Source: a virus
Lineage: Duplodnaviria; Heunggongvirae; Uroviricota; Caudoviricetes
Virus record (IMG/VR): IMGVR_UViG_2744054675_000002
Reading direction: 5' to 3' (one strand)
Length of the DNA stretch: 5,867 bases
Below, one piece after another: positions 640 to 5,867 of this stretch. The notes beneath the pieces are model-generated. The model did no database searches. It saw nothing but the letters and a program-made list of their open reading frames with translations, and was not told the origin of the DNA. Every line of letters begins with the position of its first letter. Position 1 is the first letter of the stretch. Both the position numbers and the translations under genes were made by a program.

Positions 640-1542
640 TCAGTAGTTATGTACTGAAGGAGGTAATTCTTTATTCTTAAGTCTCATCCATGCGGAAAGA
701 TTCGTTGGTCCGTCTGGCTCATTGATATCAACATCTCGTGTGTGATTGATTAAAACGTCTCTCGCCATTCCGATAACATACGAGAACTCATGACCATAGT
801 CGTAGCATCTGCCGGAATAGTTCGATTGAATTTGTTTCAGCGCCGGATACAGTTCGCGGAATAATGCCTGTGAGCGGTTGGCATAATCCCATAACCATAC
901 AAGGCTGTTTACTTCTTTTGCAGAAAGCTCGTTGGTTTTCTTCTCTTGTTTGCTAATGAACTCACCTTCAAGCACTACCCTGTGGATGTACTCTACTGCT
1001 TGCGGTATCTGAGATGCATCAAGCTCTTCAATACTTTCCACATTGAAACGCTGATGAATCATTGCATAAGCTTCTGGGTACATTAGATGCTTTTTGCTGA
1101 CCAGCATATTTACAGCATCACGAAGCGGAGTCCTGTCATCAACAGATGTTTTCTTACGTGCATTTTCTGCCTTTCCCTTTGTCCAGTAGTCATGCAGCAC
1201 GGTAAAGCATTCTTCCTGGTACTGAATCAGTTTATCGCGGATGTCAGCACGAACTTTCTCAGGGTTGATGCTGAACAGCCATCCATTTAACTTCTTCAAA
1301 GGAAGGCAGAGTAGCTTACGAAGTTTCCCATCAGCGGCAACCATATTCATATGAATACAGTTGAACTTATCTAGTTGTTTCATAAGTTTTTGTTGCTGAG
1401 TACCCCAGCTCATTCCGAGGTTTTCAACGATTGGCTTCATCGCAACATATGCAACTCCGGCAGCCATGGCGGTGATAATCTGCTGACCATTGAAAGGTAC
1501 GTAAGAGGTGTTCACTGCTTCTAAAATTGCTATACTATTCAT
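640..1542 (-). CDS. ant: Antirepressor Ant (P22 immI-type), 300 aa
   Basis: ORF 640..1608 on the minus strand, but the codon at 1608 is TTG. The first ATG is at 1542..1540 ([21 protein letters not shown]...), with GGAG about 10 nt upstream, giving 300 aa. Size, position directly downstream of an Arc-like gene, and orientation toward the tailspike all match P22 ant. Confidence 0.85.
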
Positions 1543-1614
1543 GTTGGTTTTTCTCCACGGATTTACCGACAACCGAAGCCCTGACTGTTCCAGCAGTTGG
1601 GGCTTCAACTTTTT
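1543..1614 (+). ncRNA. sar: Candidate sar-like small antisense RNA, complementary to the ant RBS/start and the arc-ant intercistronic region
   Basis: Plus strand: extended -10 motif TGcTATACT at 1528..1536, inside the ant 5' coding region, which predicts a start near 1543. A hairpin follows at 1575..1606 (GAAGCCC / GGGCTTC core, extendable with G-U pairs, 6-nt loop), then AACTTTTTG at 1607..1615. The predicted transcript of about 70 nt matches the size and position of the P22 sar RNA. Ends are approximate. Confidence 0.5.
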
Positions 1615-1778
1615 GCTATATTACCTTTAGAACTATCCCGCCTTAAACTATCCACTAACCGCATTACCATCTCGGTATTTATTGAGCGACCATTTTCTTT
1701 CGCTGACTTCTCGATTGCTAACTTAACCTCTAATGGGATGCGCAAAGGGTACTTTGGTGCGTCTGACTTGACTATCAT
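1605..1778 (-). CDS. arc: Arc-family ribbon-helix-helix repressor, 57 aa
   Basis: Minus-strand ORF. The ATG at 1778..1776 is preceded by GGAGGT (revcomp of 1782..1787). Protein [57 protein letters not shown] has the N-terminal beta-strand plus helix pattern of P22 Arc (compare PQFNLRWPREV...ENGRSVNSEIY). The track ORF 1605..1793 begins at a TTG and is taken as an over-extension. Confidence 0.85.
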
Positions 1779-1866
1779 ATTACCTCCAATCAATTTGGTA
1801 TAACCGTTATACCATTGTGATCGCAGTGATGCAATAGTAATATCACCAAAATGCTATGGAGGTGGT
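1779..1866. promoter_or_regulatory. Divergent immI control region (Pant leftward, Pmnt rightward) with operators
   Basis: An 88-bp gap between divergent arc and mnt start codons. Candidate Pmnt on plus: -35 TTGTGA 1815..1820, 17-bp spacer, -10 TAATAT 1838..1843. Candidate Pant on minus: -35 TTGCAT (revcomp of 1829..1834), 17-bp spacer, -10 TATAAC (revcomp of 1806..1811). Promoter hexamers were assigned by eye and are tentative. Confidence 0.6.
1796..1814. promoter_or_regulatory. Perfect 19-bp palindromic operator TGGTATAAC-C-GTTATACCA (putative Mnt-type operator overlapping the Pant -10 and start)
   Basis: Nine-bp perfect inverted repeats around a central C, read directly from the sequence. 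It sits about 18 bp upstream of the arc start codon, overlapping the proposed Pant -10, analogous to O-mnt in P22. Confidence 0.6.
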
Positions 1867-2103
1867 ATGTCACGCGAAGAGCCGCAAATAAATATCAGGA
1901 TTTCCAAAGAGTTAAAGGCAAAGGTTAAAGCCAGGGCGCAACATAACAAGCGTTCCATGAATGCTGAAATAATACAGATTATCGAAGATGCTGTTTGTGG
2001 TAGATCGCTTAATAGCAATGAATTTGCTCAGAAAGAGGCTGACAAATTCAGGGATGCGCTGATTGAAACACTGAAAACCATGTATGGTAAGGATGCAAAA
2101 TGA
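1867..2103 (+). CDS. mnt: Mnt-family ribbon-helix-helix repressor, 78 aa
   Basis: ATG at 1867 with GGAGG at 1858..1862. Protein MSREEPQINIRISKELKAKVKARAQHNKRSMNAEIIQIIEDAV... matches the P22 Mnt N-terminal pattern (compare ...FNFRMPMEVREKLKFRAEANGRSMNSELLQIVQDAL). It is divergent from arc-ant, as in P22 immI. Confidence 0.85.
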   Translation: MSREEPQINIRISKELKAKVKARAQHNKRSMNAEIIQIIEDAVCGRSLNSNEFAQKEADKFRDALIETLKTMYGKDAK

Positions 2104-2309
2104 ATAAAAAACAGTTTATTAAGTCAAAAACATCAAGCAAGGAAGAGCTAGAGAAAGAGCTAAACTCCCTGAAATATGCTCTGTGTCTGGTTTACTCAAG
2201 ACTGCCAATGGAAGATAAAAACGCTATTTACAATGAAATGATTAGCAGCCTTGATTTTAACGATAGAGACCTAGCATCCCACCTCAACAGCTTCCGCGTC
2301 CCTGAGTAA
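2100..2309 (+). CDS. Hypothetical small protein (69 aa), translationally coupled to mnt
   Basis: The ATG at 2100 overlaps the mnt stop in an ATGA arrangement, with AAGGA 6 nt upstream. The protein is hydrophilic and probably helical, with no family I recognise. The region looks AT-rich by eye. Confidence 0.5.
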   Translation: MNKKQFIKSKTSSKEELEKELNSLKYALCLVYSRLPMEDKNAIYNEMISSLDFNDRDLASHLNSFRVPE

Positions 2310-2469
2310 TTCTGTTGCGGATTTGCTTCTTGCGGTGGTTTAGGCTGGAGAGCTTGGCTTCTGCTTCCGATATTTGCGCATCCAGATCTTTAAGTTCAAG
2401 ATCTGAAAGTCGCTGGTCAAGCAGGGTTTGATTCAACTCGATGTTGTTCAGGCGTTCTTCTATGGTCAT
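2284..2469 (-). CDS. Hypothetical coiled-coil-like small protein (61 aa)
   Basis: ATG at 2469..2467 with AAGGTAA upstream (revcomp of about 2476..2482). Codon choice looks coding-like (CTG, CGC, AAC, ATC). The protein has heptad-like hydrophobic spacing and a basic C-terminus. It lies in late-operon orientation and overlaps the 3' end of the 69-aa ORF by 26 bp, so it is uncertain. Confidence 0.35.
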   Translation of the reverse strand: MTIEERLNNIELNQTLLDQRLSDLELKDLDAQISEAEAKLSSLNHRKKQIRNRITQGRGSC

Positions 2470-2494
2470 ATTATTACCTTAGTGGGAGATTGGT

Positions 2495-2794
2495 GTGAAG
2501 CGATGGGTTATAGGTGCATTCTGTTTTCTAATTAGTGGTCTTGCACAATCGCAAGATAAGGATCTGAAATTTGCTAACGACATGTTAGTTACAGCTAAAG
2601 TTGCTGGTATGTGTGGAACATTTAAACAAATGTTTGCTTTTCAAGAAGCAACACAGATGCCCGGCGGAGATGAATTTATTGAACGTTTTTTGAATACGGA
2701 AATTTCTCGCCTAGGAATGTCACTTCAAGAGTTCATGAAGTTGTGCACAGATTCTATAGAGTCATACAATAAATTAAAAAGGATGTCAGAATAG
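2495..2794 (+). CDS. Hypothetical secreted/periplasmic small protein (99 aa) with N-terminal signal peptide
   Basis: GTG start at 2495 with GGGAG at 2484..2488 (6-nt spacer). The N-terminus MKRWVIGAFCFLISGLAQSQ has a basic n-region, hydrophobic core and a likely signal peptidase I site after GLA. There is no lipobox. The mature part of about 79 aa has two Cys. The gene is AT-rich. Confidence 0.6.
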   Translation: MKRWVIGAFCFLISGLAQSQDKDLKFANDMLVTAKVAGMCGTFKQMFAFQEATQMPGGDEFIERFLNTEISRLGMSLQEFMKLCTDSIESYNKLKRMSE

Positions 2795-2808
2795 CCATCC
2801 ATGGCTAT
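2791..2808. repeat. 18-bp palindrome ATAGCCAT-CC-ATGGCTAT straddling the stop codon of the 99-aa ORF
   Basis: Eight-bp perfect inverted-repeat arms with a 2-bp centre, read directly from the sequence. Function unknown (protein-binding site or RNA hairpin). Confidence 0.4.
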
Positions 2809-2820
2809 CGGGAGGTTAAT

Positions 2821-2889
2821 ATGGTAACAGTCGGTTGGATTATTGTTGCCCTGCTTGTTGCTCTGTGGGCAAAGAATCGTTACTACTGA
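2821..2889 (+). CDS. Candidate 22-aa hydrophobic micro-protein ([22 protein letters not shown])
   Basis: ATG at 2821 preceded by GGGAGG at 2810..2815 (5-nt spacer), 26 nt after the 99-aa ORF stop. It encodes a single predicted transmembrane helix with a basic/aromatic tail. Caveat: 50 bp overlap the antisense of the Gln-rich 3' end of the gp16-like gene, which biases toward Leu/Val codons. Confidence 0.25.
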   Translation: MVTVGWIIVALLVALWAKNRYY

Positions 2890-5008
2890 GAAAAGCGATA
2901 ATACCAACGCGGGCTAGATTTTTCTTCTCGTCCGCTGATAGCGTATTTACCCAATCCCTATATGGTTTCACTTTCTGCATTGAAGCATCCACCGATTTCC
3001 TAGATGCTGGGGTGCTGGCGTGACCTGCGGCAATCCTTTTTGAGAGATTTTTAAAAGCCGGAGATGCTATTAATTCATCAGCGGCAGCCATTCTTGAATT
3101 TTTACCAGAACGGAGGAGGCTAAAGAGTACCCCTGCCGTACCGGCTCCAGGCGCTCCGATGGCTGTGGTTAGCCCTTCTGCTTTAGCCACGTCTTTTCCT
3201 ATTCCATATATACGCCCAAGCATTCCCTTCTCTCCTGCGAACTGATTCATCATCCGGTCAATTTGAGAGGAGGAATACACCTTCTCGCTGCCCACCCTTT
3301 GCATGCCAGAAGCCACCTCATAGATGTTTCTCAACCTACGCGTAGCCTGATAGCCAATTGCCCGGCTCAATGCCTGCATATTTGATTTGTTTCTTGATAG
3401 CCCTCCATACCACTTAACAAATCCAGGAACACCAAGTGACTGCCCGGGAGATTTAGCGAACGTAGTGAAAGCCCTATTCATTGCGGTGGCAACAGCTGGT
3501 TGCACCATGTCATCAGGAAGATTTGAAACTAGGCGACGGAAATCACCGCCCTTTCCTTGAGACATATCGACGATAGCTTGCTGTAATTGCGGCACTATTC
3601 CTTTATCCAAGTCTCTGCCAAGATTTTGAACAGCGGCTGCCTGCACTGCGAATCTCTTTCTCCCGATCTCTCTAGCTAAATTCCATGTATCCTCTGCACC
3701 ATATTTGGCAGCAGCGGCTCCCTGATCTTTTATCAGTGCGCTTTCAATAATTCCAAGGTGCCGAGCGTCGATGCCGCTATATGGCCCTTTATCCATCTCT
3801 TTGCCAAGAGCCCTTCCAACCTGCCGTCGAACTGCATCAAGAAGACCATAAGTCGGGGCGGTGTTTGGGTCTATTTGTTCCAAGGTCTTTGACAGTTGAG
3901 GATATAGCGATTTTAGTTTTTCCAGCCCACCGACATCATCTGCAATATCCTCAATGGCGTTAGTGGTATGGGTGGTATCTACGGTAGCTCTTGTTGGAAT
4001 TTTTGCTCTAATTTGATTGTATAGAGTGTCTTCTTGGCGCTTCAGGTTTGATCTTAACTCCTCATAAGAGCTTTTGACCTTTTGATTGATAAAGTCCTTA
4101 TCAACGCTCCCACCAAAATCATTAATAAATTTATCTGCCTGCTCTCCAAGCCTACTAATGGCCTCTCGCTGTGCGTGGAACAGTTTATTCCCTGGGGTTG
4201 CAGCTAAAGCATTTTCAAACGCGCGGTAAGAAGGGTTGCTGGAGTACATGCCGGGAGTTAAGGCATCCTCCATCCCAAGATTGCGGGCGGCCTGTAGCAC
4301 AGAATCATCTGGTGAAACAGCTTCCGCGAGAGCATTTAAACCAGATCTGTTTCCTGTTATTGGATTCACATCTGTAGCTTTCGTTGCAACCCTCGCCATT
4401 CCACTAAGTTCAGATGCCTGAGACATTTCTGCCGATGGAGGCCTAAACCTCTTCGTAACCGCACTGGCTGCTTTGCTAATCACTGGAGATGCCAATTCAG
4501 CAATTGGACCAGCGGCAGCACCTATAGCCGCCCCTGTAGTTACATTGCCACCGGTTCCGTTAGCAACAACACCACCTTCAACCGCACCAAGCCCTGCGGC
4601 GGCAGCCAGCCTTGCCGCCCCTTTCGGAACCTGAGAAATAATCCCACCACCACTAACAAATGGCGCTGCTTGTCCAACAAACTCACCAACATCTTGTGCG
4701 GTTGATGGTTTTGCCGCTAACTTCTGCTGTAGAGACTGAATTGCGGCTTGCTCTTCTGGTGTCATATCCTGAAACAGGCCAACACCTTTACCAACATCCA
4801 TCAATCCACTGAGAACGCCATACATAAAACGGTCGAAACCGTTAGCATTATTAACAACATTTTCCTGTCTGGAATTTTCCTCTGGTGAAACCAAAGGAGA
4901 TTGCTGCTGTTCTGGTTGGGAATCAAGCACAAAGCCATCAGGAAGTTGTGAGTTATCAGGCTGTTCATCCAGAACAAACCCCTCTGGTAAACCTACATTG
5001 GTTGCCAT
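2840..5008 (-). CDS. Ejection (DNA-transfer/injection) protein, P22 gp16-like, 722 aa
   Basis: Long minus-strand ORF with ATG at 5008 and AGGA about 7 nt upstream. It is the last late-operon gene before the immI region, which is the position of gene 16 in P22-like genomes. It has a Gly/Ala-rich segment and a hydrophobic stretch near the N-terminus. The family assignment comes from synteny and composition, not from a verified alignment. Confidence 0.7.
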
Positions 5009-5867
5009 TGTCCGTTCCTGTAAATAATTTTCTGACCAGTTTTAGGATTTTTCGCGGTCATACCTTCTCGAAATGTTTGACCGCCAGATGTTGCTTGTTG
5101 TGTCTGTTGTTGCGCAGGCTGCTGAATATCTTCATACAGCTTGGCTTTTCTGGATTGCAATTGCTTAGTTAGTCCGCTGGGGAGAGAATCTCCATAAGTT
5201 GAAAGATAATCATCCATTTGCTGATTAAACTTTTCGCCTTCAGTATTTGCCATCAGTTTTGAGGTGTTGATTAAGTCTTGGACTTGCTCATTATTCAGCA
5301 TCTTGCCGTTAGATAATTGGCTAACATAGTTACCAAGTGTGCCGAATATTCCATCAGTGCGTTTTACCTGCACTTGCTCACCTTCGCGTACCACAGATTG
5401 CGGATCCAGCGATTTCATATAGTTGAAAATCATTCCCAACTGTGCGGCTGGAGTGTTGCGCTTACCAAGGGCTTGTAGGTTGTCAGCAGCACTGCGCATT
5501 GCAGAATAATTCTTTGAGAACCCATTAATATCACTATTCAGATTTCGAACAAGTTTTGGGTCAATCTTTCCGCTTTCCTGTTGTTTCATCCCTAATTCCT
5601 GCAACTTCAGGGCTACGTTATCATTATGCATTTGTGCCCGCTGAGCCCTGTCTAGTTGAGCGTTTTGGATATTTGCCCATCCTCTCGCGTTCTCCATGTC
5701 AGCCTGACGGATGCTTTCATCCAATCGCCCTTTCTCAAGTTGGCGACCAACCATCTTATCCTGATAATCCAGCATTTTATCCGGACCAACAGCCCCTAGC
5801 GTCATAGTAGTCAGCATGTGTGATAGCTGCTCTGGATTCTGGATACCTGTCTGAATCATCCAGTCAG
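4993..5867 (-). CDS. Ejection protein, P22 gp20-like; 3' portion, N-terminus lies beyond the right window edge
   Basis: The minus-strand frame is open from the window edge (codons upstream of the ATG at 5859 remain open) to the TAG at 4995..4993. It overlaps the start of the gp16-like gene by 16 bp, which is typical late-operon packing. The product call is by synteny only. Confidence 0.6.

Follow-up and report, generated by a model that had tools for sequence, protein, structure and literature searches.

The exclusion factor Spackle (gp61.3) of phage T4, the product of a single gene, inhibits the tail lysozyme of the incoming phage in the periplasm; it is a Sec-exported, all-helical protein of about 75–80 mature residues, with cysteines suited to a periplasmic disulfide. 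The classical moron of Hendrix and colleagues, exemplified by HK97 gp15 and by lambda bor and lom, carries a promoter and a terminator of its own and differs in composition from its surroundings. In P22, SieA blocks DNA entry, and the mutations that allow escape from it map to gp16 and gp20; sieA is present in 22 of 66 P22-like phages, between the homologues of gene 16 and gene 9 (PMC10883804). P22-like prophages are common in Escherichia coli and Salmonella, and since sieA is missing from two thirds of those P22-like phages that have been sequenced, the slot of this gene is a fair place to seek other entry-blocking functions. Here, we describe this slot in a 5867-bp stretch of DNA (the window), which comes from a P22-like (Lederbergvirus) prophage of E. 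coli and corresponds to its immI region, in an orientation reversed relative to the usual P22 map. In the window, the slot holds four small open reading frames (ORFs), orfA to orfD (the island), and one of them, orfC, is predicted to encode a periplasmic protein of a widespread family.

An earlier prediction made for this DNA (the original prediction) had proposed that the island lies at the sieA position and is an accessory hotspot. All four ORFs were present where it had put them: orfA at 2100–2309 (+), orfB at 2284–2469 (−), orfC at 2495–2794 (+), and orfD at 2821–2889 (+). The position was also correctly recognized; orfC lies on the mnt strand and runs towards the gene found in the place of gene 16.

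Organization of the slot between mnt and the ejection genes

The four ORFs form a patchwork of separately assorting single-gene cassettes between two converging transcription units rather than one system. The genes of the plus strand (mnt, orfA, orfC, and orfD) converge on those of the minus strand, which carries orfB as well as the ejection genes, arc, ant, and the tailspike gene. As is established for P22, the late operon runs along the minus strand and reads through gene 16 to gene 9. The nearest sequenced phage is Escherichia phage vB_EcoP_Kapi1 (Kapi1), with 96.4% identity across 78% of the window, and the closest complete genome for the island stretch (2050–2950) is that of E. coli Res13-Lact-PEB17-18 (Res13), with 98.9% identity and an equal gene order. 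In the alignment of the window with Kapi1, Res13, and a fox isolate, near-identical blocks were broken by clean insertions and deletions; in Kapi1, for example, about 250 bp that include an ORF of 60 codons for a signal-peptide protein are inserted between orfB and orfC. Moreover, in E. coli genomes the matches to 2063–2559 (orfA and orfB) and to 2485–2950 (orfC, orfD, and the end of the ejection gene) occurred independently of each other.

We surveyed the slot in 29 related loci. Its length ranged from 0.76 to 6.0 kb, and its cargo differed across the loci, SieA in P22 included, which marks the slot as a genuine hypervariable site for accessory genes. The plan of the slot was mnt, a first site (site 1), orfB on the opposite strand, variable cargo, a second site (site 2), and the ejection gene on the opposite strand. 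At site 1, the ATG of the cargo gene overlapped the mnt stop codon as ATGA in 11 of the 14 loci checked. The cargo joined in this way was orfA, a gene for a secreted 105-residue OrfC paralogue (47% identical to OrfC), or a gene for a secreted protein of 129 residues, which the record of phage Emek calls similar to Sf6 gene 38. In the remaining three loci, c11, which encodes a small membrane protein, started 2 nucleotides (nt) after mnt (two loci), or orfC started after 44 nt (one locus). Cassettes thus seem to be exchanged precisely at the ATGA overlap, which would also couple their translation to that of mnt. At site 2 (window 2484–2497; loci L003, L006, L021, L022, and L028), genes that differed as cargo had a common ribosome-binding site followed by GTG AAG, and diverged thereafter. 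Cargo at this site comprised orfC, the gene for the 129-residue protein, and genes for two small membrane proteins, with P22 SieA in an equivalent position. The Shine–Dalgarno sequence with GTG AAG makes a second precise junction.

The 3′ boundary of the orfC cassette was marked by a palindrome at 2791–2808, which can form a hairpin (AUAGCCA-UCCA-UGGCUAU) and straddles the orfC stop codon (2792–2794). Similarity to loci with other alleles of the ejection gene (L015 and L016) stopped there. As such loci diverge just past the hairpin, orfD belongs to the ejection-gene module and not to orfC. The fold energy of the hairpin was −12.3 kcal/mol with a z-score of only −1.4, so it is not a strong terminator, and neither a terminator nor a promoter was detected on the plus strand in 1500–3200. 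The single coherent system that had originally been proposed is not what we found: orfA is placed in the mnt operon, orfB lies on the opposite strand, orfC is a separate cassette, and orfD goes with the allele of the ejection gene.

Other cargo of the slot included the genes for SieA (P22) and for secreted proteins as well as, by inspection of the sequences, genes for two lipoproteins and small membrane proteins, and most of the cargo at the sieA-like position was envelope-targeted. A slot gene annotated as ClpP-like was found in one genome record. By inspection of the sequences only, a HicA-like protein of 65 residues is encoded in the slot of L015 (2573–2770, −), and a SocA/Panacea-like protein of 149 residues together with a partner of 140–162 residues in those of L005 (5748–6621, −), L008, and L029; these genes look like ones of the toxin–antitoxin type. 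An apparent case of two true OrfC-family genes in one prophage was not supported, as over-extended ORFs with a common upstream region had merged unrelated cargo.

OrfC and the other products of the slot

orfC has a GTG start, preceded by the Shine–Dalgarno sequence GGGAGA at 2484–2489, and encodes a precursor of 99 residues. A Sec signal of about 19 residues was predicted, with cleavage after AQS, leaving a mature protein of about 80 residues; the record of Kapi1_059, the counterpart of OrfC in Kapi1, gives a DeepTMHMM signal at residues 1–22, and a hydrophobic N-terminal signal was present in every member of the family that we aligned. AlphaFold modelled three helices, with a predicted local distance difference test score of 82 for the precursor and 90.1 for the mature part. 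By these models, OrfC is a small periplasmic protein, Sec-exported and three-helical, with two invariant cysteines.

By an exhaustive profile search, OrfC belongs to a large undescribed family, which comprises 265 clusters at 50% identity; almost all of its members have about 100 residues. In an alignment of 44 members, which were 21–45% identical to OrfC, residues K35, C40, and C84 were invariant, and the conserved motif was AK.xGxCG...QM..FQ..TKMxGGDEF..RF..TE.ARLG. To judge by this deep conserved family, orfC is a genuine gene. A Pfam scan of the 44 members gave scattered noise only, and the family profile matched nothing below E 0.45 among all PDB sequences. Foldseek searches with the model of mature OrfC returned generic helical matches, the best at E 3.0 against PDB (unrelated chains) and at E 1.0 against a viral library. 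The letters GGDEF at residues 57–61 (MPGGDEF, window 2663–2677) could be taken for a diguanylate cyclase signature, which we rejected as coincidental: neither OrfC nor any of the 44 members matched the Pfam GGDEF model, and the letters lie at a helix–loop boundary of an 80-residue helical protein. As they fall within the most conserved motif of the family, they are a trap for motif-based annotation.

The allele of orfC present in the window is rare, being found in 7 of 5426 complete E. coli genomes, and a direct tblastn search with OrfC against 50,697 phage records matched Kapi1 and one Salmonella phage only; with so few matches, finished phage genomes under-sample the family. Metagenomic lambdoid prophages also had distant members, located in their early or immunity regions. 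In two such contigs (L030 6001–7537 and L031 1340–2876), the OrfC-family gene was followed by the same gene for a 389-residue protein with no Pfam domain, which could be a conserved partner of the family in that lambdoid lineage. In Methylophaga sp. (L033 4007–8400), the OrfC-family gene lay in an array of small ORFs on one strand, divergent from the gene for an integrase with SAM_4 and Phage_integrase domains, and this array may be an integron cassette array. One copy in Pseudomonas adjoined a resolvase gene and another was within a putative prophage, called by inspection of neighbouring ORFs devoid of Pfam domains; a Chromatiaceae copy was on an island with integrase and AlpA genes, and a Yersinia copy adjoined integrase remnants. 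As its contexts were prophages, an integron-like array, and islands across Proteobacteria, orfC is a stand-alone mobile cargo gene without a conserved partner.

For orfA, orfB, and orfD, homologous DNA from 30-odd related loci was compared, and the substitutions were tallied per reading frame. In orfA, 9 of the 13 variable sites were at third codon positions, and the ratio of synonymous to non-synonymous changes was 10:3 in its own frame; of the other five frames, four had 0–2 synonymous changes, and one antisense frame had 8:5. In orfB, 20 of the 30 variable sites were at third positions and the ratio was 24:7, with all amino-acid changes confined to the last 16 residues, so that residues 1–45 were invariant across 22 distinct nucleotide sequences. 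This substitution pattern demonstrates that orfA and orfB are genuine genes. In orfD, there were 3 variable sites with no frame preference, and one of them changes Trp to Ser in the hydrophobic core.

The original prediction had assigned the ORFs to no family, and none of the four indeed belongs to any in Pfam, NCBIfam, or PADLOC: scans of OrfA to OrfD and of the product of the 722-codon gene in the gene-16 position gave nothing above threshold. The hits to the defence models of PADLOC-DB 2.0 were merely coiled-coil noise (PbeC, E 7e-4 at 16 bits, and JetC), and tblastn of the four proteins against the P22 locus found no match. Nevertheless, the genes themselves had been deposited before. OrfA, OrfB, and OrfC matched hidden Markov models of PHROG families over their full length (phrog_16466, E 4.6e-51; phrog_7586, E 3.3e-44; and phrog_19844, E 2.7e-27, respectively; all of unknown function), and they are annotated in Kapi1 and Emek, in the former as the hypothetical proteins Kapi1_059 to Kapi1_062. 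What is new here is the anatomy of the cassettes and the definition of the OrfC family.

OrfA is a hydrophilic protein of 69 residues with no signal peptide. The ATG of its gene overlaps the mnt stop codon as ATGA, from which orfA appears to be translationally coupled to mnt as the second gene of the mnt operon. Homologues of OrfA were at least 75% identical, and the named ones came from Escherichia and Salmonella only. OrfB is a coiled-coil protein of 61 residues with a basic tail, and the 3′ end of its gene overlaps that of orfA by 26 nt; like OrfA, it has no hydrophobic segment. Its homologues, at least 72% identical, came from Escherichia, Salmonella, and Serratia, and it was found in 130 of the 5426 complete E. 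coli genomes. OrfB was 93–100% identical whether it stood beside orfA or beside the gene for the 47%-identical OrfC paralogue.

The commonest length of OrfB was 61 residues, but the Prokaryotic Genome Annotation Pipeline names forms of 89–92 residues "hemolysin XhlA family protein". The coiled coil of OrfB weakly resembles the N-terminal part of the XhlA model (PF10779; E 0.056). However, OrfB scored 14.1 bits and the 92-residue form of Kapi1 12.3 bits against a gathering threshold of 34.7, and OrfB lacks the C-terminal hydrophobic or transmembrane segment, ending instead in the basic sequence ...HRKKQIRNRITQGRGSC. The long forms are upstream over-extensions antisense to an ORF of 60 codons, and we reject the XhlA assignment on these three counts. 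This ORF, Kapi1_060 (phrog_37095; L001 4245–4427, +), encodes a signal-peptide protein and is located between orfB and orfC in Kapi1 and in other loci; its antisense strand creates the spurious extension of 89–92 residues. The window has no ORF of this type between 2469 and 2495. A promoter-like site on the minus strand, at 2499–2470, was also rejected: its −10 hexamer is the spacer between the ribosome-binding site and the ATG of orfB, and a transcript from this site would miss the orfB start codon.

orfD would encode a single hydrophobic helix with a basic and aromatic tail, and 50 of its 69 nt overlap the last 16 codons of the 722-codon gene in antisense. Its Shine–Dalgarno sequence, GGGAGG at 2810–2815, with a 5-nt spacing, is the sole 6-nt match among the 226 ATGs of the window, but about 0.8 such matches would be expected by chance by our own arithmetic, which leaves orfD unproven as a gene. 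It was present only with this allele of the 722-codon gene, and it is annotated in none of the records. The 22-residue hydrophobic peptide proposed originally thus stands as an ORF, whereas its status as a gene is not confirmed, given the three variable sites with no frame preference.

The surrounding immI region

We assigned the window to immI because it contains the sar RNA and the arc–ant–mnt genes. The ant gene (640–1608, −) encodes the P22_AR_N and P22_AR_C domains. The sar antisense RNA (1543–1610, +; Rfam RF00262, 91.8 bits against a gathering score of 43) overlaps the arc–ant junction, and a terminator-like hairpin lies at 1575–1606 in the sar region. arc follows at 1605–1793 (−). The mnt gene (1867–2103, +), which heads the plus-strand operon, encodes an Arc/ribbon-helix-helix repressor (Pfam Arc, E 5.7e-13), 97% identical to Kapi1_063. 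A total of 88 ORFs of at least 20 codons were found in the window.

On the other side of the island, the 722-codon gene in the position of gene 16, which encodes an ejection protein in P22-like phages, extends from 2840 to 5008 (−). Its product matched phrog_6704 (E 2e-232) and no Pfam family, and is 98% identical to that of Kapi1 hyp19 (Kapi1_058), whose best BLAST match, according to the authors of the Kapi1 study, was a "putative lytic transglycosylase" at 29% identity (PMC8787464). It had no significant similarity to P22 gp16 (BLASTP E 0.097). Both flanks of the island, mnt and the gene in the gene-16 position, had been placed correctly in the original prediction, but the name "gp16-like" can be kept in a positional sense only. 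Alleles of this gene in related loci were only 23–53% identical. The 3′ part of a gene-20-like ejection gene with an Inj_translocase domain occupies 4993–5859 (−) and extends past the end of the window; the 288-residue ORF product in the window is the C-terminal portion of a 448-residue gene-20-like protein. In related phages, a gene-20-like allele either 99% or 69% identical was joined to the same 722-codon gene, which indicates mosaicism within the ejection module.

The GC content was 40.1% in the island, 40.1% in mnt, 40.2% in arc, 43.4% in ant, and 47.9% in the 722-codon gene. The claim that the island is more AT-rich than its flanks was borne out in comparison with the ejection gene (40.1% versus 47.9%), but not with the immunity genes mnt (40.1%) and arc (40.2%); the stretch of 740 nt with the lowest GC content in the window begins at 1519 and covers arc, mnt, and orfA. 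The sole compositional outlier was orfC, with 37.0% GC and 31% GC at third codon positions (GC3).

Possible roles of OrfC and comparison with known systems

Published work on related prophages bears on the island at several points. In Kapi1, hyp19 is a gene for 723 residues at 30414–32582, and hyp20 is orfC (supplementary table, PMC8787464). Kapi1 lysogens have a modified lipopolysaccharide (LPS) with an altered ladder. The gene behind this change did not come to light on overexpression of hyp5, hyp19, hyp24, and hyp25 or on deletion of all of these but hyp19, which could not be deleted; hyp20 to hyp23 (orfC, the 60-codon ORF, orfB, and orfA) were outside the set tested (PMC8787464). The hyp19 deletion constructs, which carried the flanks of the gene, were toxic in non-lysogenic cloning and donor strains, and a flanking hypothetical gene was suspected (PMC8787464). 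In Gally, a P22-like prophage of strain LF82, two genes of the same slot were among the best-expressed prophage genes in broth and were induced in macrophages (PMC9928086).

Our reading of the whole locus, to which we give about an even chance of being right, is that the window contains an immI accessory segment of a Kapi1-related prophage, built of exchangeable single-gene cassettes, with OrfC as a candidate periplasmic binder or exclusion protein. In the lysogen, OrfA, OrfC, and perhaps OrfD would be made by read-through from Pmnt or from weak local promoters, and OrfB would be made late in lytic growth. OrfC would be active in the periplasm, where it would stoichiometrically bind or inhibit a component passing through the envelope, the likeliest target being the penetration machinery of an incoming phage, such as a cell-wall hydrolase or the conduit of ejection proteins. 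By analogy with SieA or T4 Spackle, OrfC might confer superinfection exclusion; we infer this from its position and cellular location, and consider it possible, though on balance improbable, but still the first in rank among the functions of OrfC that we weighed, before orphan immunity and, last, conversion of the envelope or LPS. In its favour are the precedent of SieA in the slot, the envelope-targeted cargo, the expression of the slot in Gally, and the toxicity of the hyp19 flank.

Several observations weigh against this reading. OrfC-family genes were found with many different alleles of the ejection gene, so that nothing suggests their co-evolution with a target specific to one phage. They were also found outside phages, which a general immunity or envelope function would explain no less well than would exclusion of phages. 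For orfC, neither a sigma-70-like promoter nor a terminator was detected. Transcripts of mnt were undetectable in the Kapi1 lysogen, which weakens read-through from Pmnt; Kapi1_059 to Kapi1_062 are not among the listed silent genes (PMC12922286). The orfC allele is rare (7 of 5426 E. coli genomes), and the four ORFs are linked to exclusion by position and cellular location only.

Among the alternatives, the next in rank is that OrfC is an orphan periplasmic immunity protein, a selfish but beneficial cargo that would bind an antibacterial toxin acting in the periplasm and occlude its active site; the toxin could be a bacteriocin, an exogenous lysozyme, or a type VI effector with amidase or muramidase activity. 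OrfC is small, secreted, helical, and likely disulfide-bonded, and is encoded by a single gene without a conserved partner, which prophages, integrative islands, and an integron-like array carry in several proteobacterial orders; such a distribution across varied mobile elements is typical of orphan immunity genes. Even so, we regard this alternative as unlikely, for OrfC matched no Pfam immunity family or solved immunity-protein fold, no toxin gene adjoined orfC in the loci examined, and its repeated placement beside ejection genes and under mnt control indicates a phage-related role. Ranked after it, and still less probable in our view, is lysogenic conversion, in which OrfC, alone or with OrfA, OrfB, and OrfD, would alter the host envelope, as in the O-antigen or LPS change of Kapi1 lysogens. 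Small Iap peptides of seroconverting phages interfere with O-antigen polymerization or chain-length control, and a periplasmic protein or a tiny membrane peptide from the island could disturb them likewise. The predicted periplasmic location of OrfC and the single hydrophobic helix of OrfD would suit such a role, as would the fact that the LPS-altering gene of Kapi1 was not found among the genes tested, which did not include hyp20 to hyp23 (PMC8787464), and the expression of the slot in lysogens of the related prophage Gally (PMC9928086). However, the window is not Kapi1, and nothing indicates a modified LPS in its host; the OrfC family occurs in Methylophaga, Pseudomonas, and Hyphomicrobium, hosts with unrelated O-antigens; Pfam and NCBIfam scans revealed no similarity to known seroconversion proteins; and orfD has no evidence of conservation.

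The toxicity of the hyp19 deletion constructs in non-lysogens, which also destabilized the prophage (PMC8787464), could instead be attributed to OrfD, if it were a small membrane toxin restrained by the antisense 3′ end of the ejection-gene mRNA or by another antisense transcript, in a type-I-like addiction or abortive module that would stabilize the prophage. Its size and shape fit (22 residues, a hydrophobic helix, and a basic and aromatic tail), it has the best Shine–Dalgarno sequence in the window at a 5-nt spacing, and the 722-codon gene overlaps it in antisense. We nonetheless hold this to be very unlikely: its three variable sites showed no frame-specific constraint, one of them placing Ser for Trp within the helix; it was missing wherever the allele of the ejection gene differed and was unannotated in all records; antisense ORFs of 20-odd codons with hydrophobic products are frequent, and there are 88 ORFs of at least 20 codons in the window; no Rfam antitoxin RNA was found; and a full hyp19 deletion would probably truncate orfD. 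The least probable alternative, which we consider highly improbable for the island as a whole, is that its small ORFs lack a function of their own and that it merely fills the space between immI and the ejection genes, as neutral DNA or as a relic of recombination. The slot is indeed highly mosaic with abrupt junctions, orfD and several over-extended ORFs are clear artefacts of ORF calling, and the orfC allele is rare. Against this stand the strong synonymous excess of orfA and orfB in their own frames, the invariance of OrfB residues 1–45 over 22 nucleotide sequences, and the retention of the OrfC motif and both cysteines down to about 30% identity across 44 members. These observations contradict neutrality for orfA, orfB, and orfC, and leave it possible for orfD only.

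The analysis singled out orfC, a gene with good support, from the four ORFs of the island as the candidate, assigned it to a sizeable family of secreted proteins on many kinds of mobile element, corrected the annotation artefacts (the name "hemolysin XhlA family" and the over-extended ORFs), and tied the island to two loose ends of Kapi1, the LPS-modifying gene and the toxic flank of hyp19. A broader proposal is that the OrfC family, with its signal peptide and three-helix domain of about 80 residues, defines a widespread and new class of periplasmic proteins for exclusion or immunity, each encoded by one gene, which would neutralize a component that crosses the envelope and functionally replace SieA in P22-like phages. 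We consider this proposal rather unlikely; if it were true, the unexplained toxicity of Kapi1, its O-antigen modification, or both could map to the island.

Compared with the closest relatives, the proteins OrfA, OrfB, and OrfC are 99–100% identical to those of Kapi1 (Kapi1_059 to Kapi1_062; hyp20, hyp22, and hyp23) and of Emek (orf69 and orf61), in an equal order, but Kapi1 differs from the window by the insertion of about 250 bp between orfB and orfC, and Emek lacks orfC. Compared with SieA, OrfC is of another kind: SieA is a polytopic inner-membrane protein of 164 residues with the motif FxRYPxEAxxFNK, whereas OrfC is predicted to be a soluble periplasmic three-helix protein, and the two have no similarity (BLASTP E 0.98). 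Nor does OrfC belong to the SieA size class of about 160–190 residues with several membrane segments, as it has 99 residues, one N-terminal signal, and three amphipathic helices. What orfC and sieA have in common is position, orientation (both are on the mnt strand and run towards the gene at the gene-16 position), and the envelope location of their products. Spackle comes from a lytic phage and OrfC from a temperate one, and there is no fold or sequence match between them (best E 3.0 with Foldseek against PDB; nothing below E 0.45 in the PDB profile search), yet OrfC is like Spackle, as an analogy only, in its Sec signal, its helical mature form of about 80 residues, and its cysteine pair. 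Should orfC have no phenotype, the slot would be an ordinary moron slot. From classical morons, orfA differs in being translationally coupled to mnt, and a distinct composition was found for orfC only (37% GC, 31% GC3), the island as a whole being equal to mnt and arc and different only from the 722-codon gene; the slot genes resemble morons in their presence or absence among close relatives, their sharp junctions, their position between conserved modules, and their products, which are often envelope proteins expressed by the prophage.

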